A stretch of 64,000 nucleotides of DNA from Halobium salinum (GTDB lineage: Archaea; Halobacteriota; Halobacteria; Halobacteriales; Haloferacaceae). Location of the stretch: positions 93,332-157,331 of the forward strand of contig NZ_JAODIW010000008.1 in assembly GCF_026586625.1 (NCBI RefSeq). The letters are read 5' to 3'. The translations under genes were made by a program, and so were the position numbers. Of this stretch, positions 3,718 through 46,496 are shown one piece after another (the stretch's first letter is position 1; each line of letters starts with the position of its first letter). The notes under the pieces are model-generated. The model did no database searches, was not told the origin of the DNA, and was given only the letters and a program-made list of their open reading frames with translations.

Positions 3718-4913
3718 CGGTCCGCTCCCACGTCGGCACCCGAGTTGGCGCCGGAACCGGGCCGAACTCCGGTGTCGGCTCCGTTCGCGGCGTCGGCTCC
3801 ACCCTCGGGGTCATCTCCGACCGGCGCGTCCGTCACCGGTGCCGCGTCCCGCTCGGTGAGCCGGAGGAACACCTCCTCGAAGTCCGGGTCGGCGGCGTCG
3901 ACGGACGCCACCTCGTGGCCCGCGTCGAGGACGGCCCCGAGTGCGGCGTGGAGCTCGCGACCGCTCTCGACCGCGAGTTCGAGGTGGGTGGTGTCGCCCA
4001 CGGGCTCGCTCCGAATGACCTCGTACTCCCGACGGAGGCGTGCGTCGAGGCGGTCGTCGATCCGGCCGTCGACGACGACCCGGTAGCGCTGGGTCCGGAA
4101 CAGAGCTTTGAGCGCCGCGACCGAGTCGTCGGCGACGACGCGACCCTCGCTCAGCACGACGACCCGGTCACAGACGGTCTCGATGACGCCCATGTCGTGA
4201 CTCGACAGGACGACCGTCGTCGACTCGTCCTCGGCCAAACGCCGAAGCTCCCGGCGGAGCGACAGAGAACTCTCCACGTCGAGCCCCAGCGTCGGCTCGT
4301 CGAGGAACACCACGGGGACCCCCCGTGAGAGCGTGCAGGCCAGCGCGGTCTTCTGCTTCATCCCGCGCGAGAGGTCGTTGACGGGGGTGTCGGCTTTCTC
4401 CTGCAGGTCGAGTCGGTCGAGTAGCTCCTCGCCTCGCTCCCGCGCCTTCGCCGGGTCGACGTCCCCCAGCGCGGCGAAGAACCGCAGGTTCTCCCGGACG
4501 GTGAGGCGCCAGTAGACGTTGCGGGCGCCCTCCAGCATCGCGCCGACGTGGCGGTACGCCTCCCGAGTGTCCGCGTACACGTCGACGCCGTCGATGTCCA
4601 CCGCCCCGGCGTCCGGCAGGACCAACCCCAGGACGGACTTGATGAGCGTCGTTTTCCCGGCGCCGTTCGGTCCGAGGAGGCCGACGACGGTTCCAGGCTC
4701 GACGTCGAATGAGACGCCGTCCACCGCACGCACGTCGTCGCCGTAGGTCTTCGTCAGGTTTCGGACGGAGACCGCGGCGGCGCCCGAGTCGAGGTGAGGG
4801 CGGGTCGCCGCGTCCCCGTCGGTCGCGGCCCCGTCGACCGCCTCCGGCGGCTCCGCGCCGGCACTCGTCGCGGCGGTCCCCTCGTCGGCGCCGGGAGGTT
4901 GCATAGCTGTCAC
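3714..4913 (-). CDS. ABC transporter ATP-binding protein (low-complexity N-terminal extension; true start may lie downstream)
   Basis: Walker A (LLGPNGAGKTTL), ABC signature (LSRGMKQK), and Walker B (VVFLDEPTLGLD). The N-terminal roughly 50 aa are A/G/D/T-rich. Confidence 0.85.
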   Translation of the reverse strand: MTAMQPPGADEGTAATSAGAEPPEAVDGAATDGDAATRPHLDSGAAAVSVRNLTKTYGDDVRAVDGVSFDVEPGTVVGLLGPNGAGKTTLIKSVLGLVLPDAGAVDIDGVDVYADTREAYRHVGAMLEGARNVYWRLTVRENLRFFAALGDVDPAKARERGEELLDRLDLQEKADTPVNDLSRGMKQKTALACTLSRGVPVVFLDEPTLGLDVESSLSLRRELRRLAEDESTTVVLSSHDMGVIETVCDRVVVLSEGRVVADDSVAALKALFRTQRYRVVVDGRIDDRLDARLRREYEVIRSEPVGDTTHLELAVESGRELHAALGAVLDAGHEVASVDAADPDFEEVFLRLTERDAAPVTDAPVGDDPEGGADAANGADTGVRPGSGANSGADVGADR

Positions 4914-36161: not shown

Positions 36162-37331
36162 TCACCCCTCGAAGGGGGTGTAGTCGACGCGGTACCGACG
36201 GGCGGGTGCGGTGGTCTCGCGGGTGCCACCCTCGCCCGAGTCGGTGTCGTCGATGCGGTCGACGCCGTCGACGGCGTAGAACCGGATGCGGCGCTCCTGC
36301 TTCGTGACGACGGGCACGTCGTAGTGGACCGCCTCGTAGTTCGGGTCGCGGTCGCGGTCGGCGAGGAAGTCGCGGTGTCGCTCGAGGCGGGCGCTGAGGT
36401 GCCGGTCGGAGCGCTCGGCGAGACCGCTCCGGCGGTCGTCGAAGGCGGCGACGAAGTCGGGGTCGAGTTCGTAGCCGACCGAGTCACGAGCCGCGAGCAT
36501 CGCGGCGAGGGTCGTCGTCCCCGTCCCCCAGAAGGGGTCGAGGACGGTGTCGCCGTACGCGGAGTACATCCGAACCAACCGGAGCGGGAGTTCGAGGGGG
36601 TACGCCGCAGAGCGGTCGCGGACGTCCGTCGCCCCCTCCGATTCGGTCGCGTCGTCCGCGTCACCCGCTCCCCCGGTGCCCCCCGCTCCGGTGCCGGCTC
36701 CGCTGTCGGCCGCGTCCTCGCGGTCGGCGAGCGTCTGCGTCGTCCCGCCCAACTCCCACAGGTCGGAGAACCAGCGGTTGCGCTCCTCCCAGAAGAAGGC
36801 GCTCTCGTAGCGGGCGTCGTCGCCGGGGGGGAACCGGCGGGTCTCCCCCTTCCGGAAGACGAGGACGTACTCGTGTTCGAGCGTGACGTAGGCGTTCGAG
36901 GGGAGCATCCCCGAACCCATGAACTTCGTGAGGCTGTTGGTCGGCTTGCGCCAGAGGATATCGGGGAGCGCTCGTAGGCCCCGTTCACGGAGGGCGGCGA
37001 GGACGCGGGCGTGATTGGGGTACTGCCGGAACCCGTCGTCGAGCGAGCGGGTCGCGTCGCCGACGTTGACGCAGGCGATTCCCCCCGGCGCGAGCACCCG
37101 AACGACCTCGTCCCAGACGGCGTCGAGCGTCTCGTGCATCCGCTCGAACGCCGTCTCCCCGTCGCCGCGGTCGAGCGCGTCCCGGACCGCCGGCTCCTGC
37201 TCGGCGAACAGGTCGTCCCACATCTCTATCATCGGGTACGGCGGGGAGGTGACGACGAGGTCGACGGCGCCGTCGTCGACGGCGGCCATGTCGGCGGCGT
37301 CGGCGACGTAGAGGCGGTGCTCGGTTCGCAC
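36162..37331 (-). CDS. Site-specific DNA methyltransferase (N4-cytosine/N6-adenine, beta-class), apparently orphan
   Basis: Motif IV DLVVTSPPY lies near the N-terminus and motif I (VLDPFWGTGTT) near the C-terminus, the beta-class order. A low-complexity insert (…DSGAGTGAGGTGGAGDADD…). No restriction endonuclease candidate is adjacent. Confidence 0.8.
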   Translation of the reverse strand: MRTEHRLYVADAADMAAVDDGAVDLVVTSPPYPMIEMWDDLFAEQEPAVRDALDRGDGETAFERMHETLDAVWDEVVRVLAPGGIACVNVGDATRSLDDGFRQYPNHARVLAALRERGLRALPDILWRKPTNSLTKFMGSGMLPSNAYVTLEHEYVLVFRKGETRRFPPGDDARYESAFFWEERNRWFSDLWELGGTTQTLADREDAADSGAGTGAGGTGGAGDADDATESEGATDVRDRSAAYPLELPLRLVRMYSAYGDTVLDPFWGTGTTTLAAMLAARDSVGYELDPDFVAAFDDRRSGLAERSDRHLSARLERHRDFLADRDRDPNYEAVHYDVPVVTKQERRIRFYAVDGVDRIDDTDSGEGGTRETTAPARRYRVDYTPFEG

Positions 37332-37574
37332 TGCGTAGCGGTTGGTGTGGAGGGTACTAGTCTTTTCGCCGAGTTGGGGGGTACTCTGAAAACGGCGGCG
37401 TGTCGACGGAGACGGAACTGTACCGGCGTCCCACGGAGGCCCCCGCTCCCTTCCGGAGCTTCACCCTACGTCGGCTGGCCGGTTAGTCGCCGTTGGCGCC
37501 ACGAACGGTGAGTCGTCGCTCGCAGTCGCGTCCGGTTCCGACAGCCCGATGTGGGTCGGCGTCGGACCGCGACC

Positions 37575-38129
37575 ATGACCACTCGAGTCGGCGTCGGCAG
37601 CGGCAACCCGGTGAAGCGACGGGCGGTCGAAGCGGTGTTGAACGACGGGAACGGCGGCTTCGCCGAGGCGTCGGTGGAGGCCGTCCCGGTCGACTCCGGC
37701 GTGAGCGAACAGCCCGAGGGCCACGCGGAGACCCTCGAAGGCGCCGAGAACCGCGCGCGGGCCGTCGTCGAGGCGGGGTCGGACCTCGGAGTCGGCGTGG
37801 AGGGCGGCGTGGCGACGTTGGACGCCGGTGCCGGAGACGCCCGAGGCGACCTCTACCTCGTCATGTGGGCCGCCGTCACCGACGGCGACCGCTGGGGCCG
37901 GGGGTCGGGGCCGGCGCTCGCGCTCCCCGCTGACGTCGCCGAGCGCGTGCGCGACGGCGAGGAACTCGGCCCGGTGATGGACGACACGCTCGGCGAGGAG
38001 CACGTCGCGCGAAAGCAGGGTGCGGTCGGGGCGTTCACCGGCGGTCGCGTCGACCGCGCGGACGCGTTGGCGACGGCGGTCGCGGGGGCGCTCGGACCGT
38101 TCGTCACGGACCACTACCGAACGCGCTGA
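37575..38129 (+). CDS. Inosine/xanthosine triphosphatase (YjjX/DUF84 family non-canonical NTP pyrophosphatase)
   Basis: MTTRVGVGSGNPVKRRAVEAVL…DSGVSEQPEGHAETLEGAENRARAV… matches the YjjX family pattern. Confidence 0.65.
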   Translation: MTTRVGVGSGNPVKRRAVEAVLNDGNGGFAEASVEAVPVDSGVSEQPEGHAETLEGAENRARAVVEAGSDLGVGVEGGVATLDAGAGDARGDLYLVMWAAVTDGDRWGRGSGPALALPADVAERVRDGEELGPVMDDTLGEEHVARKQGAVGAFTGGRVDRADALATAVAGALGPFVTDHYRTR

Positions 38130-38145: not shown

Positions 38146-40035
38146 TCAGTCCTGGGCGGACTCCGCGCCCTCGACCCGCTCTCCCACGTCCGCGGACTCG
38201 TCGACCGCGGTGGTGAGCGAGACGTTGAGCGACGCCATCGAGACGACCCCGCCGGCGAGGGTGACGAGGTTCTTCACGGCGTGGTCGACGAACGCGGCGC
38301 CGACCACGACGGCGGGAGAGATGGCCGGGACGAGGACGACGACGAGCACGGTGAAGGCGGCCTCGTACAGTCCGATGCCGCCGGGCGACAGCGGGAGCAC
38401 CTTCGCGAGGTTGCCGACGCTCACCGCGAAGAAGGAGACGGCGAGCAGGTAGCCGAGCGGGACGCCGGCGGGGATTCCGAACGCCAGCAGGACGAGGAAC
38501 GCGGTGAGCACGTCGAGCGTCCAGATGGCGAGACTCGACAGGCCGACGCGGGCGAACGCGCCGGGCGTGCCGGCCGCCCGCTGGAGGTCGCCGACGAACC
38601 GCTCGACGACCCCGGCGACCATGTCCGCGTAGGAGTCGTCACTGAGGCGAGCGACGACCGGGCGCACGAGGTTGCGCTCGGAGCGCGCGGAGGCGACGAT
38701 GGCGACGACGGCGCCGACCGCGGCGACGCCGACGAACGCGGCGACGCCGGCCGCGACGCGAGCCGCGTTCTTGTCCACGTCGCCGACGGTGCCCGAGCCG
38801 GTGATGCCGACGATTAGCTCCGTGGTGCGGCCGGTGGCGACGAGTCCGACGAAGACGAGGCCAGCGAGTGCGACCAGCGAGAGCAGGTCGAACACCCGCT
38901 CTGCGGCGAGGGAGGCGAACCCGGAGGCGTACGGGATGCGCCGGCGGGCCTTCACGACGTACGCGCGCACGGCGTCGCCGGCGCGGGCCGGGAAGACGAG
39001 GTTCCCCGTCTGGCTGATGAAGATGGCCCCCGTCAGGAAGCCGACCGACTCGCGATACCCCAACTCGGAGAGGATGTCGCGGTAGCGCGTCCCCCGGAGG
39101 GGCCACGAGAACAGGTAGACCAGCGCCGCGCCGGCGATGAGCGCCGGGTCGGCCTCGCTGGCGCGGGCGACAACCTGCTCGAAGTCGATGTACAGCGTCA
39201 TCAGCCCGACCGCGACGACCGTCATCAGGATGCCGACGGCCATCGAGACCTTCCGAGTGATACGGGGTTGAACCGACAGCTCCCACCACGTCCGGAGAAC
39301 CTGACTCCCCATCCCGAGCACGTCGCGGACGAGGTCGACTTTCGTGTCACCCTTCGGCGTCCAGTCGACCGGGAACTCGGCGACGCGGTACCCCCGACGC
39401 TGAGCGCGCACGAGCAGTTCGGTGTCCCAGAACCAGTGGTTGTCGCGGATGTCGTGGTGGAGCACCTCGAACGCCTCCCGCGAGACGGCCTTGAATCCGC
39501 ACTGGTGGTCACGTAGGGAAGACCGGAGGAAGAGCCGCACGAACCCGTTGTAGACGCGGCTCGGGACGCCCCGTTTCGGCGGTCGGTCCGCGGTGCGGCC
39601 GGGCATCCAGCGCGAGCCGGTCGCCACGTCGGCCTCGCCGGAGCGCACCGTCTCGACGAGCTCCTCGAGGTGACGCATGTCGGTCGCGAGGTCGGTGTCG
39701 AAGTACACCAGCACGTCGCCGTCGGCGGCGGCGAAGGCCCGCTCCAAGGCGCCGCCGCGACCGAGGCGCTCGTCGCTGTGGAAGTGTCGGACCCGGGCGT
39801 CCTCGGCGGCGAGGCGACCGGCGATGTCGGGCGTGGCGTCGTCACAGCCGTCCTCCGCAACCATCACCTCGAAGCTCCCGCTCGGAAGGAAGCGTGAGAG
39901 CGTCGACAGCGTCTCGCGGACCGTCCCCTCAATGGTCTGCGCCTCGTTGTACGCGGGGAGGACGACGCTCACCTCGACGCTCGCGGGGGACCGGCGAGCC
40001 TCAGGTGCGTCGGCCGCGGCGGCCGGGCCACTCAT
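38146..40035 (-). CDS. GT2 dolichyl-phosphate hexosyltransferase fused to flippase-like (lysyl-PG synthase TM-type) membrane domain; AglD-like
   Basis: The N-terminal GT-A domain (VSVVLPAYNEAQTIEGTV…) has DxD motifs (EDGCDD and YFDTDLA). The C-terminal roughly 330 aa has about 8 TM segments and a PGGIGLYEAAF motif. Internal ATG (MSGPAAAAD…) used. Confidence 0.65.
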   Translation of the reverse strand: MSGPAAAADAPEARRSPASVEVSVVLPAYNEAQTIEGTVRETLSTLSRFLPSGSFEVMVAEDGCDDATPDIAGRLAAEDARVRHFHSDERLGRGGALERAFAAADGDVLVYFDTDLATDMRHLEELVETVRSGEADVATGSRWMPGRTADRPPKRGVPSRVYNGFVRLFLRSSLRDHQCGFKAVSREAFEVLHHDIRDNHWFWDTELLVRAQRRGYRVAEFPVDWTPKGDTKVDLVRDVLGMGSQVLRTWWELSVQPRITRKVSMAVGILMTVVAVGLMTLYIDFEQVVARASEADPALIAGAALVYLFSWPLRGTRYRDILSELGYRESVGFLTGAIFISQTGNLVFPARAGDAVRAYVVKARRRIPYASGFASLAAERVFDLLSLVALAGLVFVGLVATGRTTELIVGITGSGTVGDVDKNAARVAAGVAAFVGVAAVGAVVAIVASARSERNLVRPVVARLSDDSYADMVAGVVERFVGDLQRAAGTPGAFARVGLSSLAIWTLDVLTAFLVLLAFGIPAGVPLGYLLAVSFFAVSVGNLAKVLPLSPGGIGLYEAAFTVLVVVLVPAISPAVVVGAAFVDHAVKNLVTLAGGVVSMASLNVSLTTAVDESADVGERVEGAESAQD

Positions 40036-40221
40036 TGGGAGCCTCTCACCCCGGCGAGTGTAAGAACTTTCTGTCTCGCCGGAGGTCGGCCGTCTCCCGC
40101 TCCGAGATGCGCTGTGGCGACGAGACGCTCCGTCCGGACGGTTCGACCCCGAAAACCAGTTGTCCAGATTATCAATCAGTACGCCGAACATTTTTCACGG
40201 TGGACTGTGAGAGGCCAGTCG

Positions 40222-40749
40222 ATGAGCCTCGACCCGCGCGACTACGACCTCACCGAGCTCCGGTCGGTTGCCGGCGGCGAGTTCGTCGCCGACCCCGACG
40301 CGAGCGGCGACGAACCCACCGACGAGAGCACCGTATCGCCGGGTGAGCGGCTCCGCCGCCGGGAGCGCGACCGCGAACTGCTGACGCTCGCGGCCGCCGA
40401 CGGCGACAGCGTCGAACGCCCCTTCGTCGACCGAATCCCGGTGTCGCGGGCCGCAGAGCGGGTCGTCTTCGACTGGCTCGACTTCCTGCTCACCGTCGGC
40501 GGCGAGACGGGTGCACGCGACGCCCTCACCTACTACGAACGCGTCGAGTGGCTCGGCACGTCCGCCCGGGAGTCCCTCGAACGCTACTTGGACGGGTTCC
40601 CCGAGGCCCACCGCGGCGGCGAGGGCCGCGTCACGCTCGACGACCATCGCGAGAGCCTCGCCTTTGTCGCCCGTATCCGCGCCTTCGACGCGCCGCGCCG
40701 GCGACGCGAGGCGCTGCGAGACGCCCGCACGCCGGCCGACGGCGAGTAG
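40222..40749 (+). CDS. Hypothetical protein with FlaD/FlaE (ArlD/E)-like C-terminal domain
   Basis: MSLDPRDYDLTELRSVAGGEF…VVFDWLDFLLTVGGETGARDALTYYERVEWLGTSARESLERYLDGF… This resemblance to the archaellum FlaD/E domain comes from memory of the family pattern and has not been aligned. Confidence 0.35.
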   Translation: MSLDPRDYDLTELRSVAGGEFVADPDASGDEPTDESTVSPGERLRRRERDRELLTLAAADGDSVERPFVDRIPVSRAAERVVFDWLDFLLTVGGETGARDALTYYERVEWLGTSARESLERYLDGFPEAHRGGEGRVTLDDHRESLAFVARIRAFDAPRRRREALRDARTPADGE

Positions 40750-40795
40750 TCCCTCGGTGGTCGAGCGGCGCCGAATCCTGTCACCGAGTTGTATT

Positions 40796-40846
40796 CAGAT
40801 ATTTACCAGTGATAAATTGAAAGTCAGGTTTTTCAATAAGGAGTGG
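40796..40846 (+). promoter_or_regulatory. AT-rich promoter (TATA-like AGATATTTA / GATAAATT) plus Shine-Dalgarno-like GGAGTG for the actin-like gene
   Basis: This roughly 60 nt AT-rich island is the most AT-rich stretch in the window. GGAG sits 13-19 nt before the ATG at 40859. Confidence 0.3.
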
Positions 40847-40858
40847 GTCGGCCCTCGT

Positions 40859-41977
40859 ATGGCACCCGAAACCGAAACGGACGCAGCCCCGAACGCAGCC
40901 GCGGACGACGCCGAGGCTTCGAGTTCCGACGCGGCGTTCGGCGACGAGTCGAGCGCCGCCCAGCGAACCGCGGTCGGCGTCAAACTCGGCAGTACCCGGA
41001 CCGTACTCTCGATGGGTCGCGACGAGGAACGACGCGTCGTGAAGACGCTCACCTGTCTCGCCACGTACGAGGACGCCCTCACGGGCGACGAGCGCGTCCT
41101 CTACGGCGAGACGGCCGCCGCCGAGTACCCCGACCGCGTCCAGTACATGCTCCGCTCCGGCCTCCCGGAGGACGACGAGCGCGCCGAACTCACCGAGCGC
41201 TTCTTCGCCGAACTGCTCCGTTCGGAGTCGGTTCCCGAGGACAGCGGCGTCGTCTACGCCATCCCGACCATCGACAACGAGCCCGGGCTGGAGAACCTCG
41301 GCGCGGTCGTCGAGGACAGCGAAATCGGCTCCGAGGGCGTCCGTTCGTACCCCGAGTCGCTCTGTGGCGCCATCCCGGCGATGGGCGACGGCCTCGAAGC
41401 CATCAACGACATCTTCGTCTCCATCAACCTCGGCTCGACGAACCTCGAGGCCTGTGCGTACCGCCGCGGCGAGCAGCTCGCCCCGTGGGCGACGGGCGCC
41501 GTCACCGGCGTCGGCGTCGACCGGGCCATCACGGGCTACGTCGAGGAGGAGACCCAGCGCCGGGTCACCGTCGACCAGCAGACCGCCCGCGAGTACAAGG
41601 AACAGCACGCCGACTTCGTCGACTACGAGCCGTTCACGGACATCGTCCAGCAGCCCGGCGGCGGCTCCCACGAGTTCACCATCGAGTGGGCGGTCATGGA
41701 CGCCGTCGACGAGTTCGTCGACGCCGCCGTCGAGGCCGTCGCCGACGACTTCCTCCCCGGCGTCGCCCAGGAGCACGTCCGCGTCTACCGCCGCGCCCTC
41801 GACCGACCCATCGTCCTCACGGGCGGGATGGCCTGCATCCCCGGCCTCGTCGAGGAGTTCGAGACCCGTCTGAGCGAGACGCTCGACCGCGAGGTCACCT
41901 GCGTCGCCCCCGACGACCCCGAGCTGGCGGCCGCCGAGGGCGCCCAGCGCATCGCCGAGCGCCTGCTCGAGAACTGA
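40859..41977 (+). CDS. Actin-fold (ASKHA superfamily, MreB/ParM/actin-like) ATPase
   Basis: Phosphate-1 VGVKLGSTRTVLS, phosphate-2 VSINLGSTNLEACAY, and adenosine motif VLTGGMACIPGLVEEFETRLSE. 372 aa with an acidic N-terminus. Confidence 0.55.
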   Translation: MAPETETDAAPNAAADDAEASSSDAAFGDESSAAQRTAVGVKLGSTRTVLSMGRDEERRVVKTLTCLATYEDALTGDERVLYGETAAAEYPDRVQYMLRSGLPEDDERAELTERFFAELLRSESVPEDSGVVYAIPTIDNEPGLENLGAVVEDSEIGSEGVRSYPESLCGAIPAMGDGLEAINDIFVSINLGSTNLEACAYRRGEQLAPWATGAVTGVGVDRAITGYVEEETQRRVTVDQQTAREYKEQHADFVDYEPFTDIVQQPGGGSHEFTIEWAVMDAVDEFVDAAVEAVADDFLPGVAQEHVRVYRRALDRPIVLTGGMACIPGLVEEFETRLSETLDREVTCVAPDDPELAAAEGAQRIAERLLEN

Positions 41978-41990
41978 GCTGAACCGACCG

Positions 41991-43019
41991 ATGGCCGCCG
42001 GCGCCGACGGAACGGACGGTCGTCACCCCGCCGAGAGCGACGCCGGCGGGGCCACCGGCGGCGACGCCGACGACGGTACCGACGCTACACCGGTCTCCGG
42101 TCCGGAGCGGTGGTGTTACGCCGGCGAGAAGCCCGTCGAGACCGTCCCGGTCGCGGACGGGTGGGCCGCCGTCACGACCCACCGACTCCTCCTCTCCGAC
42201 CCGAGCGACGGCGGGTCGAACCTCCTCGCCGTCGACCGGCCGAACGTGACCGACGTGCGCGTCGACGCGGCCGGCACGACGCGGTACCTCGAACACCTCC
42301 CCGACCTCGTCGTCTACACGCTCGTCCTCCTCGGCGGCCGGGCCGGGCTCGCCTTCGTCGACTTCGGTTCGACGCTGTCGACGAGCATCCCGTCGGGGAC
42401 CGGAATCGGCGGGCTCTCCTCGATGCTGTCGATGTTCCAGACGGGGTTTCGACTGCTCTCGACCGGCCTTCTGGTCGGCGGGGTCCTCTGTGGGGCCGCG
42501 GCGCTGGCGCTCGGTGGGCTCTACGTCCGCTCGCGGGAGCGGCGACTGGTCGTCGACCGCGCCGGCGACGAACCGCTCGAACTCCCGCTTCCGGACGGCG
42601 CCGTCGACGCCGGACGGCTCCGGGCGGCGCTCGGGCTGGACACCGACGCTCAGGGCGCCGGACCGAGCGCGCCGGACGAACCCAGCGCGAGACCTGTCGG
42701 CGCGAGCGGGACCGACGCCGCCGACACGCCGACCGGCGCCGACACGCGGAACGTCACTGACACGCGGAACGTCACCGACGTACCGACCGGCGTCGACACT
42801 CCGAACGTCGCCGACACTCCCGAGACTCGGACGGCTTCCGACGTCCGTGCAGACCCCGACCGTCGTCCCCCCGCCGACCGGGACGCCGCACCCGGACCGG
42901 ACGCGCCTGTCGCCGGTCGGGACGAGGAGGGCTCTGACGAGCCGTTCGACCTGAGCGAGTTCGAGCGGGCGGAGGCGTACGACTCGATAGAGTCGATTCC
43001 GCCGGACGAACGGCTCTGA
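41991..43019 (+). CDS. Membrane protein with N-terminal bacterial-type PH (bPH_2/GRAM-like) domain and disordered repeat-containing C-tail
   Basis: WCYAGEKPVETVPVADGWAAVTTHRLLLSDP…LLAVDRPNVTDVRVD… is PH-like. Two to three TM segments (…LVVYTLVLLGGRAGLAFVDF… and …LLSTGLLVGGVLCGAAALALGGLYV…). The tail carries …ADTRNVTDTRNVTDVPTGVDTPNVADTPE… tandem repeats. Starts 14 nt after the actin-like gene. Confidence 0.5.
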   Translation: MAAGADGTDGRHPAESDAGGATGGDADDGTDATPVSGPERWCYAGEKPVETVPVADGWAAVTTHRLLLSDPSDGGSNLLAVDRPNVTDVRVDAAGTTRYLEHLPDLVVYTLVLLGGRAGLAFVDFGSTLSTSIPSGTGIGGLSSMLSMFQTGFRLLSTGLLVGGVLCGAAALALGGLYVRSRERRLVVDRAGDEPLELPLPDGAVDAGRLRAALGLDTDAQGAGPSAPDEPSARPVGASGTDAADTPTGADTRNVTDTRNVTDVPTGVDTPNVADTPETRTASDVRADPDRRPPADRDAAPGPDAPVAGRDEEGSDEPFDLSEFERAEAYDSIESIPPDERL

Positions 43020-43073: not shown

Positions 43074-43877
43074 TCACAACAGTTCGTCCAACCGCTCCTT
43101 GCTCGTCCCGACGTAGTCGTAGTTCAGCGTGTACACCTCGAGCGAGAGCGTCCCGTCCCACTCGGCGGGAAACGCCTCGAACACCTGCTCGAAGTCGATG
43201 GTGCCGGCGCCGAAGGGGAGGTGTTCGTCCTTCGACCCGCGGGTGTCGTTGAGGTGGACGTGCGAGATGCGCTCCCCGTGGTCGGCGACGAACGAGGCGA
43301 TGCCGCCGGAGTCCCGCCCGTCCATCCGGGCGTGACCGGTGTCGAGGGTCATCGACACCTCCGTATCGGCGAGCAGTCGGTCGAACTCGTGGGTCCGAAA
43401 GACGCTGTAGGGGACGTTCTCCGCGCAGAGTTCCACGTCGCGGTCGGCGGCGTACGCGTCGAGCGTCCGAACCGACTCGACGACACCCTCGCGAACCGTC
43501 GAGCGGTCCCACGCGGCGCCCCAGGCGTGGGAGTCGGGGTGGACGACCGCCTTCTCGACGCCGATGTCGGCGGCGAGGTCGAGGTACGCCTCCAGTTCAC
43601 GGACCGTCCCCTCCCGAACCCGTTCGTGCGGGGAGCCGAGGTCGAATCCGCCGAAAGGGAGGTGTGCGAGCACGGAGAGCGCCCGACCCGCCGGTCGGTC
43701 CGTGTTCACCGCGTCGACGGCGTTCCGAACCGACGCGGGGTCGAGTCGGCTCCGGGCGCCCGCTCCGTCCAGCATCAACTCGACGAAGTCGAACCCGAAG
43801 TGGTCGGCGGCCTCGACAGCCTCGTCGAACGCCATCCCCTGTTGCGTGACGAACCCGGTCCGGACGTTCGGGTTCAC
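43074..43877 (-). CDS. Sugar phosphate isomerase/epimerase (xylose-isomerase-like TIM barrel)
   Basis: 267 aa with …VELCAENVPYSVF… and …HVHLNDTRGSKDEHLPFGAGTIDFEQVF…, typical of AP-endonuclease-2 / xylose-isomerase-like TIM-barrel proteins. Confidence 0.7.
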   Translation of the reverse strand: MNPNVRTGFVTQQGMAFDEAVEAADHFGFDFVELMLDGAGARSRLDPASVRNAVDAVNTDRPAGRALSVLAHLPFGGFDLGSPHERVREGTVRELEAYLDLAADIGVEKAVVHPDSHAWGAAWDRSTVREGVVESVRTLDAYAADRDVELCAENVPYSVFRTHEFDRLLADTEVSMTLDTGHARMDGRDSGGIASFVADHGERISHVHLNDTRGSKDEHLPFGAGTIDFEQVFEAFPAEWDGTLSLEVYTLNYDYVGTSKERLDELL

Positions 43878-44080
43878 GATTGCCTCATGGCCCGTCGTTC
43901 GGACCGTGCGCGTTTATCTCCGTGGGTGACCCCGAGACCTCCGTGGGTGGCCCCGAGGCGGACGCCGTCGTCGCCACCTGCGCCGCCGCCCCCGCTGTCG
44001 CCGTCGAATCGACCGACGGCGGCCCACGAACGTCCGCCGTAGCCGGACTCCTTTTGCGTCTGCCGGTCCAAGAGCCGGCG

Positions 44081-44455
44081 ATGAGCGACGACCGGGACCC
44101 GCTCGCCGTCTTCGACGACGCACTCGTCGCCGCGGTCGCCCAGGAGCGCAGCCTCGACCCGACCGCCCTCAGGACGCTCGTCCGCCGCCACCAGGAGGCC
44201 GTCCGGTCGCTCCCCGGCGTCGACGGCCTCGTCTACGAGTGGCGGAAGGCGTTCGCCAACGACCCCCTGCTCGAACGCCGGCCGGAGGCGTACTTCCTCG
44301 CGCTCCCGGGACACGTCTGGATAGAGTTCGCCTCGACCATCGAGGCCGACGGGGACGAACTCGCCGCCGTCCGCGACGTCCACGAGCGGTTCCTCCGACG
44401 CGAACTCGGCGACGTGCTCGACGACCGCGAGGCGATGGTGCTCGTGCGGCCCTGA
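44081..44455 (+). CDS. Conserved hypothetical protein (124 aa)
   Basis: Internal ATG (MSDDRDPLAVFDDALVAAVAQERSLDPTALRTLVRRHQEAVRSLPGVDGLVYEWRKAF…). The antisense 386 aa ORF was rejected. Confidence 0.4.
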   Translation: MSDDRDPLAVFDDALVAAVAQERSLDPTALRTLVRRHQEAVRSLPGVDGLVYEWRKAFANDPLLERRPEAYFLALPGHVWIEFASTIEADGDELAAVRDVHERFLRRELGDVLDDREAMVLVRP

Positions 44456-44551
44456 GGCCACCGGAGCCTCGCTCGTCGGTCCCGGTTTCGGTTCGACAGT
44501 CAGTACCACGGCACGGAAACGTTCACCTTCCAGCGCCCGGCATTCGGAGGT

Positions 44552-45085
44552 ATGCCCGGTGCAGTGTTTCTGGAGAACGAGACGGTCGAACTCCGAACCG
44601 TCGAGGAGGAGGACCTCGAGTTCGTCCGCGACAACGTCAACGACCCCGAGGTCTGGCGCACGCTCGGTATGTCCCGGCCGAACAACATGAAGGATGAGGA
44701 GCAGTGGCTCGAGCGAATCTCCGAGGAGGACGACGACGTGCACCTCCTGATGGCCGACGACGGCGAACCGGTCGGCTCGGTCGGCCTCCACGTCAATCAG
44801 GAGTGGGGCGTCGGCGAGTTCGGCTACTGGGTCGCCGCCGACCACTGGGGCAACGGTTACTGTACCGCCGCCGTTCGCCTCCTCAGCGGCTACGCCTTCG
44901 ACCACCTCCGGCTCCACAAGGTCGCCGCCGGCGTCTACGACCACAACCCCGGCTCGGCGAAGGTGCTCGAGAAGGTCGGCTTCGAGCGCGAGGGCGTCCG
45001 CCGCGAGGAGGCGTTCGTCGACGGCGAGTACCACGACGTGTTGCGGTACGGACTGTTGGCCGACGAACTGGAGCGCGAGCAGTAG
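44552..45085 (+). CDS. GNAT-family N-acetyltransferase (RimL/RimJ-like)
   Basis: …VGSVGLHVNQEWGVGEFGYWVAADHWGNGYCTAAVRLLSGYAFDHLRLHKV… is the acetyl-CoA binding core. Confidence 0.8.
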   Translation: MPGAVFLENETVELRTVEEEDLEFVRDNVNDPEVWRTLGMSRPNNMKDEEQWLERISEEDDDVHLLMADDGEPVGSVGLHVNQEWGVGEFGYWVAADHWGNGYCTAAVRLLSGYAFDHLRLHKVAAGVYDHNPGSAKVLEKVGFEREGVRREEAFVDGEYHDVLRYGLLADELEREQ

Positions 45086-45307
45086 TCAGAACAGCGCGAA
45101 CGGCCCGCCGACGGAGATGCTCAGGCCGACGGCGACAAAGACGACGCCGAGGACGCGCGTGAACGTCGTCCGCGCGCCCGTCGGCTCGACCGTCGCGGTC
45201 GACCCGTCGCTACCGGCGATTCTCCGGGAGGCGGACCGTAGCTGTCGCTCTCCCGTCGGAAATGAAGAACGCTGTGGTCGGGTGTCGGAGCCGACCCCGT
45301 TAGCCAT
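45086..45307 (-). CDS. Small hypothetical protein with C-terminal TM helix
   Basis: MANGVGSDTRPQRSSFPTGE…TRVLGVVFVAVGLSISVGGPFALF. Weak call. Confidence 0.25.
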   Translation of the reverse strand: MANGVGSDTRPQRSSFPTGERQLRSASRRIAGSDGSTATVEPTGARTTFTRVLGVVFVAVGLSISVGGPFALF

Positions 45308-45356
45308 CCGAATCCGCCTGGGAGGCCGAGCTGTCGCCCCTGGAGGCTCCACCAGG

Positions 45357-46496
45357 TTACAGTCCGAGTTGGCGGCCGATGACGAGGTGCTGAATCTCGC
45401 TCGTGCCCTCGCCTATCTCCATCAGCTTCGCGTCGCGGTAGAACCGCTGGGGCGCGAAGTCGGTGGTGTAGCCGTAGCCGCCGAGCACCTGCACGGCGTC
45501 TTCTGCGTTCTCGCGGGCGGCCTCGCTGGCGTCGAGCTTGGCGAGCGCGGACTCGCGGTTGACCTCGTTGCCCTGGTCGTACGTCCAGGCGGCTTTGTGT
45601 GTGAGGAGGCGCGCGGACTCGACCTTGCGGTGCATGTCGACGATTTTGTCCCGAATCGCGTCGAACTTCGAGATGGGCTGGCCGAACTGCTCGCGCTCAC
45701 CTGCGTACTCCTTCGCGTGGTCGTAGGCGCCCTGTGCGAGCCCGGTCGACAGCGCGGCGATGGAGATGCGCCCGCCGTCGAGGGTCTTCTTCGTCTGCTC
45801 CCAGCCCTCGCCCTCCTCGCCGAGCAGGCGGTCCTCGGGGACGCGCACGTCGTCGAGGGCGATTTCACAGGTCGGCGAGCAGTTGAGTCCCATCTTGTCC
45901 CAAACGGTCGTGACTTCGAACCCGTCGTCCTCGGGGTCGACGATGAACGTAGAGATGCCGTCGTAGCCCGCACCGGGCTCGGTGACGGCCTTCACGAGGA
46001 CGGAGCCGGCGACGGAGGCGTTCGTGATGAACTGCTTGGTGCCGTTCAGGACGTACTCGTCGCCGTCTCTCTCCGCCATCGTGTCCATGTCGCTTGCGTC
46101 GGAGCCGGAGCCGGGTTCGGTGAGCGCCCAGGCGCCCATCGCGTCACCGGAGGCGAGCGGCGCGAGCCACTCCGCTTTCTGTTCCTCGGTGCCGAACATC
46201 TCGATGGGTTTGGAGGCGAGGGAGACGTGCGCGGCGTAGGAGAGGCCGATGCCGCCGGAGACGCGACCGAGTTCCTCGGTGACCAGCGCGTACATGAGCT
46301 GGTCGCCGCCGAGACCGCCGTACTCTTCGGAGACGGGAACGCCCATCACGTCGAGGTCGGCGAGCTGGTCGAACACCTCCTGCGGGAAGCGGTGCTCGTC
46401 CTCGATCTCCTGTGCGATGGGGGCGATCTCCTCCTGACAGAACTCCCGGACGGTGTCCCGAATCATCCGGTGTTCCGCGGGCAGCTCGAAGTCCAT
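45357..46496 (-). CDS. Acyl-CoA dehydrogenase
   Basis: 379 aa. MDFELPAEHRMIRDTVREFCQEEIAPIAQEIE… and the C-terminal …YDQGNEVNRESALAKLDASEAARENAEDAVQVLGGYGYTTDFAPQRFYRDAKLMEIGEGTSEIQ… are typical of acyl-CoA dehydrogenases. Confidence 0.85.
   Translation of the reverse strand: MDFELPAEHRMIRDTVREFCQEEIAPIAQEIEDEHRFPQEVFDQLADLDVMGVPVSEEYGGLGGDQLMYALVTEELGRVSGGIGLSYAAHVSLASKPIEMFGTEEQKAEWLAPLASGDAMGAWALTEPGSGSDASDMDTMAERDGDEYVLNGTKQFITNASVAGSVLVKAVTEPGAGYDGISTFIVDPEDDGFEVTTVWDKMGLNCSPTCEIALDDVRVPEDRLLGEEGEGWEQTKKTLDGGRISIAALSTGLAQGAYDHAKEYAGEREQFGQPISKFDAIRDKIVDMHRKVESARLLTHKAAWTYDQGNEVNRESALAKLDASEAARENAEDAVQVLGGYGYTTDFAPQRFYRDAKLMEIGEGTSEIQHLVIGRQLGL

Follow-up and report, generated by a model that had tools for sequence, protein, structure and literature searches.

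Gene content of the locus

The locus described here lies in a 64,000-nucleotide (nt) stretch of Halobium salinum DNA (NCBI RefSeq assembly GCF_026586625.1, contig NZ_JAODIW010000008.1, positions 93,332 to 157,331 of the forward strand), referred to below as the window. It comprises three genes, labelled A, B and C, the central one of which was identified as the actin-family gene salactin. The three plus-strand open reading frames (ORFs) coincided with the NCBI gene calls on Halobium salinum JBHSDS010000010.1 (175, 372 and 342 amino acids (aa)). Their codon-position G+C was typical of real genes, with a GC3 of 0.80-0.87 in a window of ~70% G+C.

40222..40749, + strand: gene A, ArlD-type FlaD/E-domain protein, 175 aa, pI 4.75 (Arch_fla_DE match)
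40859..41977, + strand: gene B, salactin, actin-family ATPase, 372 aa (Pfam and NCBIfam matches)
41991..43019, + strand: gene C, two-helix membrane protein with a split, probably cytoplasmic PH-like domain and a disordered acidic tail, 342 aa (hydropathy, AlphaFold2 (AF2) model)

A first-pass annotation of this DNA, made from the letters alone, had described the same three genes, and both the genes and the peptides that it quoted were present in the ORF read-out and the NCBI calls. The gap between the actin gene and the third gene, given there as 14 nt, measured 13 nt from the salactin stop codon to the gene C ATG.

Identification of gene B as salactin

On its profile matches, gene B is a salactin, that is, a new member of an already described family rather than a new actin. 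It matched the Pfam Salactin model PF25229 over profile positions 2-334 of 335 (E 1.1e-175; 583.9 bits against a cut-off of 27.1) and the NCBIfam salactin equivalog NF053533 with 573.7 bits (cut-off 400), and the protein was 100% identical to the NCBI Halobium salinum entry. The secondary matches, to MreB_Mbl, MamK and BeeR, were weak. More than 670 clusters of salactin homologues were found, and in a profile search MamK was the only sequence relative of salactin in the PDB. The actin fold proposed for the middle ORF in the first-pass annotation was thus borne out by a full-length match, to a family that had not been named there, and the three nucleotide-binding signatures were present on columns invariant in an alignment of 20 salactins.

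40973..41011, + strand: phosphate-1 motif, residues 39-51 (G40, V41, K42, G44, S45 and T46 invariant)
41417..41461, + strand: phosphate-2 motif, residues 187-201 (N190, G192, S193, T194 and N195 invariant)
41813..41872, + strand: adenosine-binding motif, residues 319-338 (T321, G322, G323, M324, C326, P328 and G329 invariant)

The N-terminal tail (residues 1-36) lies outside the Pfam match and is acidic and disordered, with nine acidic residues, one basic residue and a pI of 4.05.

Salactin was characterised in 2023 in Halobacterium salinarum (VNG0153C; Zheng et al. 2023, PMC10746226), where its filaments are dynamically unstable and grow from the cell poles. It is one of only two haloarchaeal actins studied in cells. 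The polar filament dynamics are an observation on H. salinarum. The two are alike in the full-length model match and the actin-fold nucleotide motifs, and gene B has the acidic disordered N-terminal tail. They differ in their surroundings: the Halobium gene stands between an ArlD-type gene on its upstream side and a gene for a split-PH membrane protein on its downstream side, whereas neither adjoins salactin in Halobacterium.

The ArlD-type protein encoded by gene A

Gene A matched Arch_fla_DE (PF04659) over residues 66-153 with an E-value of 2.6e-21 and 75.8 bits, above the curated cut-off of 21, which upheld the earlier FlaD/E-like call for the upstream protein. Its product was 100% identical to the NCBI entry 'FlaD/FlaE family flagellar protein' of Halobium salinum. 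The domain was 37% identical to the ArlCE domain of another haloarchaeal locus (L111), and no solved structures resembling it were found.

40222..40263, + strand: conserved N-terminal peptide of A (MSLDPRDYDLTELR; family pattern [DN]P-x-x-[YF]-D-x-x-[ED]-L, homologue alignment)
40417..40680, + strand: Arch_fla_DE domain of A, residues 66-153, all-helical (Pfam)

Among 74 distinct homologues adjacent to salactin, P5, Y8, D9, E12, L13 and R14 were conserved in about 95-96%, and the family form of the N-terminal peptide, M-x-[ILV]-[DN]-P-x-x-Y-D-x-x-E-L-R, was almost invariant. The family layout consists of this peptide, a variable, acidic and disordered linker of ~50 to >200 residues and the C-terminal helical Arch_fla_DE domain. 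A profile search of 1.84 billion cluster representatives returned 853 relatives of A; the peptide pattern was present in 93 of the top 150 representatives, in short- and long-linker forms alike. The peptide was absent from an ArlCE (P0278) encoded in a canonical arl operon with ArlH/I/J and CheF. Gene A likewise differs from the ArlCE of Haloferax volcanii (HVO_1213) in having the [DN]PxxYDxxEL peptide and in lacking a FlaC domain.

ArlD and ArlCE form the switch complex at the archaellum base in H. volcanii (HVO_1203 and HVO_1213; Li et al. 2020, PMC7534055). Genetic data from this organism give ArlD a role in archaellum assembly. Both proteins form polar foci at the archaellum base, and part of the protein reaches the pole even without the motor, perhaps through binding to the polar cap. 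Cytoskeletal control of ArlD positioning has already been shown for CetZ1 and MinD proteins.

In Salinigranum rubrum (CP026309.1; L114:6257-6980), the ArlD-type gene is split by a frame change, with the motif (MNVNPEDYDPEELRR) and the Arch_fla_DE domain in different frames, and only the Arch_fla_DE frame carries a gene call, of 97 aa. Possible explanations include a pseudogene and a sequencing error.

Pairing of gene A and salactin across haloarchaea

A total of 19 salactin loci from GTDB genomes and 80 from metagenomes were collected and searched with a locally built gene A profile, adjacency being scored in the loci with at least 700 nt of flank (n = 95). A homologue of A lay directly upstream of salactin in 83 of the 95 loci, on the same strand in 81, and these represented 74 distinct A sequences. 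When the salactins were collapsed at 90% identity, 21 clusters had A, three did not and two were mixed. The genes flanking the pair varied: 19 gene families occurred before A, and more than 20 after salactin. The gap between A and salactin was -9 to 22 nt in about 20 loci, which indicates operons. Further pairs were found in L109, L112, L113 and L114, including those of Haloplanus ruber, Halogranum and Salinigranum, and the full trio seen in the window recurred in Halogranum, Salinigranum, Halobaculum and a Haloferacaceae metagenome-assembled genome (MAG). The co-location of these genes in related genomes, on which the first-pass annotation had staked its proposal, was therefore observed. By this synteny, an arlD-type gene followed by salactin is an old and widely kept haloarchaeal gene pair.

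The pair is separated in several lineages, among them Halobacterium and those with a ThyX or MMPL protein upstream. The break in Halobacterium explains why the salactin paper, which centred on that genus, saw no informative neighbourhood. DUF7522, encoded divergently next to salactin in Halobacterium, was considered as a counterpart of A and rejected, having no similarity to the A profile and no N-terminal motif.

Adjacency without function, an ancestral arlD-salactin order merely unbroken so far, would agree with the vertical inheritance of both genes and with the splitting of the pair in the lineages named above. We regard it as very improbable: the pair has outlasted repeated rearrangement of both its flanks, the spacing is of the operon type in many loci, and in H. 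volcanii the two genes reportedly form a single transcription unit (see below). The persistence of the pair between variable flanks supports A as a partner of salactin.

Small partners encoded beside a filament gene are familiar from bacterial actin-like filaments with adjacent adaptor genes: MamJ is the acidic partner of MamK, the nearest solved sequence relative of salactin, and ParR is the partner of ParM. By analogy, gene A may serve as an adaptor, although it has no domain in common with MamJ or ParR. An arrangement closer still to ParMRC, in which A would act as ParR does, as an adaptor linking DNA, through a centromere-like site that it binds, to the growing salactin filaments, appears improbable. 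Pfam and NCBIfam scans found Arch_fla_DE in A and no ribbon-helix-helix or helix-turn-helix (HTH) domain; around the locus there were no iterated centromere-like repeats, only chance GC-rich ones; and no copies of salactin or A were found in 72,556 plasmids. The points that speak for such a segregation cassette are the dynamic instability of salactin, the small acidic protein encoded beside it, the Mrr-type nuclease-fold protein that follows it in other lineages, and the phenotype of salactin loss, a perturbed DNA distribution in low phosphate, with the kinetochore-like partner that the salactin authors postulated (PMC10746226).

Two sets of neighbours occur beside the pair elsewhere and are absent from the window. 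A protein of 500-670 aa (protein D), the successor of salactin in Haloarcula-type loci, is encoded on the same strand 300-400 nt after salactin in 35 of the 80 loci with enough downstream flank (for example, L002:6415-8316 and L008:6435-8384); it has a weak N-terminal bPH_3 match, TPR/helical repeats and, in its long forms, a C-terminal Mrr_cat domain. Next to A and divergent from it, Haloarcula-type loci (L003:2456-4311, - strand, and 32 / 26 other salactin loci) encode a ParA/MinD-like ATPase and a 310-aa protein bearing a CheW domain at its C-terminus; we take the two to resemble the bacterial ParC/ParP pair that positions chemotaxis arrays.

Relation to the motility cluster and to H. volcanii

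The first-pass annotation had noted the lack of other fla or che genes at this locus, and the window has no arl or che genes besides A. The locus is nonetheless not detached from motility, as in related genomes its A-salactin pair borders the che/arl cluster. In three Halobellus-like loci (L011, L089 and L101), the gene order was HTH_20, DUF7500, CheY, CheC, CheD, A, salactin. The complete genome of Salinigranum rubrum showed ArlCE, a KaiC-like ATPase and two flagellins, then HTH_20, DUF7500, CheY, CheC, CheD, A and salactin, followed by a C homologue, PfkB, DUF8048, a PAS histidine kinase, acyl-CoA dehydrogenase and RIO1. Where the motility supercluster is intact, the pair forms the end of the csmR-cheY-cheC-cheD block. 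The homologous A gene lay within or beside the arl/che cluster in six loci in all (L011, L089, L101, L107, L109 and L114).

The H. volcanii gene order, compared over HVO_1209..1197, is given in the supplementary tables of the CsmR paper. It runs from HVO_1213 (ArlCE) and the archaellins through HVO_1209 (HTH protein), HVO_1208, CheY, CheC and CheD to HVO_1203 (ArlD), HVO_1202 ('uncharacterized', 1097 nt), HVO_1201 (histidine kinase) and HVO_1200 (ArlD), and ends with HVO_1199 (acyl-CoA dehydrogenase), UspA and RIO. This order is collinear with that of Salinigranum and so places HVO_1202 at the salactin position; at ~365 aa, HVO_1202 also has the same length as the L011 salactin ORF (365 aa). 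HVO_1202 is probably the H. volcanii salactin, so far unrecognised, an assignment made from collinearity and length, not from sequence comparison.

Gene A resembles HVO_1203 in its Arch_fla_DE domain, its size (175 aa versus ~176 aa) and, through the Salinigranum and Halobellus-like loci, its collinear position; unlike HVO_1203, gene A of the window has no arl or che gene nearby. Position and length, the two properties compared, are in agreement, and a paralogue, HVO_1200 (ArlD2), exists. Given the HVO_1203/HVO_1202 collinearity, the position of ArlD (ArlD1) is more likely for A than that of the motility-dispensable ArlD2.

CsmR is a regulator of motility and cell shape in H. volcanii. According to the CsmR paper, 'ArlD/HVO_1202' is a transcription unit that is altered together with the arl and che genes in the csmR mutant, where HVO_1202 changes strongly; the paper also maps a CsmR peak 117 nt upstream of HVO_1203.

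In the metagenome locus L109 (L109:8717-12539), a convergent ArlCE gene (FlaC plus Arch_fla_DE), an 80-aa KaiC-like fragment and DUF7385 are found 2-4 kb away from A and salactin, with a 261-aa apolipoprotein-like helical-repeat protein between the pair and ArlCE. This contig looks like the carrier of a partly decayed arl operon.

Promoter geometry and CsmR-type boxes

The following putative regulatory elements were read from the spacers before gene A and salactin.

40188..40199, + strand: TATA-like box ACATTTTTCACG at -34..-23 from the gene A ATG (sequence read-out; putative, from position only)
40789..40848, + strand: 60-mer with the highest A+T of the whole window (41/60, rank 1), located between A and salactin; likely salactin promoter region
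40801..40814, + strand: candidate degenerate CsmR-type box ATTTACCAGTGATA, starting at -58 from the salactin ATG (three mismatches to TATCA-N4-TGATA; weak)
40829..40839, + strand: putative TATA-like box TTTTTCAATAA at -30..-20 from the salactin ATG, near the position of the conserved spacer AT-box
40840..40845, + strand: GGAGTG, the Shine-Dalgarno (SD)-like element of the first-pass annotation, 13 nt before the salactin ATG, between the TATA-like box and the ATG

The actin gene had been described as preceded by the most AT-rich 60 nt of the window and by GGAGTG 13 nt before its ATG, and both descriptions were accurate; the 60-mer starting at 40789 had 41 A+T compared with 38 for the next in the 64 kb. 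The region around 40153 was also among the most AT-rich 60-mers of the window, and a TATCA half-site was present at 40170-40174, near the gene A TATA-like box. The leadered, SD-bearing transcript deduced from these features was not supported by the homologous loci. Among 52 distinct A-salactin spacers (minimum length 45 nt), 42 had their octamer richest in A+T at -26 to -33 from the salactin ATG, and one contained an SD-like motif. An AT-rich box at -26..-33 is at the position of an archaeal TATA element and would put the start of transcription at or near the ATG. The geometry thus fits a salactin mRNA that is leaderless or nearly so, with a TATA box at about -25, rather than one with a Shine-Dalgarno leader. 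No inverted repeats were found in the AT-rich spacer. Scans for sigma-70 promoters and intrinsic terminators found nothing, such models being inapplicable to archaea.

The published H. volcanii CsmR motif is TATCA-N4-TGATA next to a TATA box (CsmR paper). In 18 of 81 distinct loci, each of Haloarcula type (L003:4955-4967, L005:4893-4906 and 16 others), a box of this kind with at most one mismatch began at -58..-62 relative to the salactin ATG. Such boxes were also present before cheY and before A in L011, L089 and L107 (L011:1526-1539 and 3881-3894). In the window, the element at 40801-40814 was the sole candidate with up to three mismatches in 40101-40860. The boxes suggest that salactin belongs to a CsmR-type regulon in several families.

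These results bear on a reverse dependence, in which salactin would be part of a motility and cell-shape programme and its polar filaments would help to place or build up ArlD, the archaellum base or the chemosensory arrays. The place of the pair at the che/arl cluster edge, the CsmR-type boxes upstream, the joint change of 'ArlD/HVO_1202' with the arl and che genes, and the ParA/MinD-like ATPase and CheW-domain protein that diverge from A in Haloarcula-type loci all agree with it, and CetZ1 and MinD provide the precedent for cytoskeletal control of ArlD positioning. We nevertheless regard this as a doubtful, if possible, account, given that the H. salinarum salactin deletion made no difference to motility, that the reported phenotype concerns the distribution of DNA in low phosphate, and that the window has no che or arl genes.

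Fold and distribution of gene C

Gene C had no match in Pfam or NCBIfam, the bPH models included, and a bPH_10 match at E 0.12 was seen in one of the 26 members of its family. The detectable homologues (n = 26) are of 200-240 aa. Residues G45, E46, V61, T62, H64, R65, D82, P84, N85 and V86 were invariant among the aligned homologues.

42102..42272, + strand: residues 38-94, first five PH-like strands (YxGE...VTTHR...DRPNV motifs; model strands 50-54, 57-61, 65-69, 78-82 and 86-94)
42282..42530, + strand: residues 98-180, helical hairpin with membrane segments 105-125 and 152-180 (hydropathy; model helices 98-128 and 140-180)
42537..42650, + strand: residues 183-220, last two PH-like strands and capping helix (model strands 183-190 and 196-199, helix 207-213)
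42651..43016, + strand: residues 221-342, disordered acidic tail, pI 4.05, Halobium-specific (predicted local distance difference test (pLDDT) ~41-61 in blocks of ten)

The AF2 model, computed from the alignment of these homologues, was confident for the core of the protein (residues 38-220), with a pLDDT of ~82-95 in blocks of ten, and 59-71 in the inter-helix loop. The top Foldseek hits of the model were bacterial PH domains, the DUF1696 structures 3dcx and 3hsa and the YdbS/YdbT-type 3b77 (prob 0.97-1.0, E ~1e-2), in alignments of ~188 columns that span the hairpin insertion. The PH-like call of the first-pass annotation was supported at the level of the predicted fold only, no Pfam bPH model having matched. 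The model of C has seven strands and a C-terminal helix; unlike in its best structural matches, a two-helix membrane hairpin is inserted in the putative PH-like fold, separating strand 5 from strand 6. Proteins of the bPH_2 type have their membrane helices ahead of an undivided domain. In the model, the domain is not N-terminal, as had been stated, but divided into five strands before the hairpin and two strands and a capping helix after it. Hydropathy showed two strong hydrophobic segments, where the earlier description had 'two to three TM helices'. The inter-helix loop is uncharged and the second helix is followed by YVRSRERR, so that, by the positive-inside rule, the loop is probably outside and both halves of the PH-like domain are probably cytoplasmic.

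Of the 25 aligned homologues, only P0022 and P0026 have any tail here, and theirs are short. The disordered tail with TRNVTD tandem repeats was correctly noted before: an 18-nt tandem repeat of 5.7 copies at 42715-42817 encodes TRNVTD-type hexapeptides. A C-terminal helix (residues 322-331, DLSEFERAEAY) was predicted within the 122-residue tail. A comparison of the N-terminus of the protein D family with the C family by hhalign was not significant (probability 2.5%).

A C homologue follows salactin by 7-17 nt in six loci: Halobium, Halogranum, Salinigranum, two Halobaculum species and the Haloferacaceae MAG. The flanks of these loci differ, those in Halobaculum being unrelated. We conclude that C is a clade-restricted accessory, probably co-transcribed with salactin. 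C is an unannotated family of unusual domain topology, of modest interest alone.

The model of the first-pass annotation can be read as one obligate three-gene unit, in which the PH-domain protein ties the actin-like filament to the membrane and the FlaD/E-like protein is the adaptor. The close spacing of salactin and C in these lineages, the different flanks in Halobaculum, and the membrane hairpin and PH-like fold of C are what one would expect of such a unit, which we nonetheless hold to be unlikely. C was beside salactin in three of the 19 genome loci and none of the 80 metagenome loci; Haloplanus-type C sits after a xanthine/uracil permease, yet the A-salactin pair is intact in Haloplanus ruber; and elsewhere the PH/TPR/Mrr protein, Pth2 or an esterase follows salactin. 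As C is mostly not beside salactin, it cannot be a general membrane anchor.

Interpretation

Considering the observed gene identities, domain architectures, synteny and promoter geometry and the predicted fold of C, we find it somewhat probable that the locus combines a known filament with a conserved, previously unremarked ArlD-type partner, possibly its polar anchor, and a clade-specific membrane accessory, gene C. The ArlD-type protein would dock or nucleate salactin filaments at the pole, the contact with salactin being made by the conserved N-terminal peptide of A or by its helical domain. Protein C, with its split PH-like domain, would provide a further point of membrane attachment in Halobium and its relatives, its membrane hairpin holding that domain at the cytoplasmic face of the membrane. 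The role of polar dock or nucleator is suggested by the polar location of ArlD, also without the motor, by the polar start of salactin filaments and by the pairing of the two genes.

Several points weigh against this interpretation. Every physical contact and the polar-anchor role are inferred. In Halobacterium hubeiense, the closest relative available for the organism in which polar growth was seen, salactin has no A gene within 5 kb, and poor synteny within the genus Halobacterium, with no partner found, has been reported (PMC10746226). The same study found normal motility and shape after salactin deletion in H. salinarum. Apart from gene A, no che or arl genes were found in the 64-kb window by tblastn with flagellin, ArlCE/H/I/J, CheF and CheW/Y/C/D, and the window scan found no CsmR box with two or fewer mismatches at this locus. 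As ArlD has a role in archaellum assembly, the adjacency could reflect a different shared process. The metagenome loci are phylogenetically non-independent, and the probable identity of HVO_1202 is positional. For gene C, the absence from the 80 metagenome loci and its place in Haloplanus-type genomes, after a divergent xanthine/uracil permease and unlinked to salactin, count in the same direction.

The partners of salactin, its polar anchor and the postulated 'kinetochore' are the gap that the conserved neighbours address. The value of the locus lies in the conserved ArlD-type partner and the motility-regulon tie, neither of which was found in the searchable literature, and not in the actin itself. 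There are three leads: an ArlD-type gene before salactin in most haloarchaea, a pair that closes the che cluster in Haloferacaceae, and a CsmR-responsive 'ArlD/HVO_1202' unit. They would join the literatures on archaellum positioning and on archaeal actins, which are not yet connected in searchable papers. A further-reaching version, that salactin may be a cytoskeletal element of the haloarchaeal polar motility organelle, co-transcribed with arlD, under CsmR-type control and anchored at the pole by ArlD, is offered only tentatively, as we doubt that it holds. If true, it would make salactin a candidate component or organiser of the polar cap and could link pole organisation to chromosome distribution.

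Flanking genes in the window

No phenotype data for Halobium were found in the literature. The divergent upstream neighbour of the locus (38146-40191, - strand) encodes a 681-aa fusion of a family-2 glycosyltransferase and a lysyl-phosphatidylglycerol-synthase-type membrane domain; farther upstream are a DUF84 NTPase (37551-38129) and an N6/N4 DNA methylase (36162-37331). Downstream, 43074-46496 contains AP_endonuc_2, DUF8048, GNAT, acyl-CoA dehydrogenase and RIO1. This AP_endonuc_2-DUF8048-(GNAT)-acyl-CoA dehydrogenase-RIO1 block is kept across Haloferacales (window compared with L107, L113 and L114). In some relatives the block comes directly after the che/arl cluster, which makes this region of the window resemble the border of a former motility supercluster.

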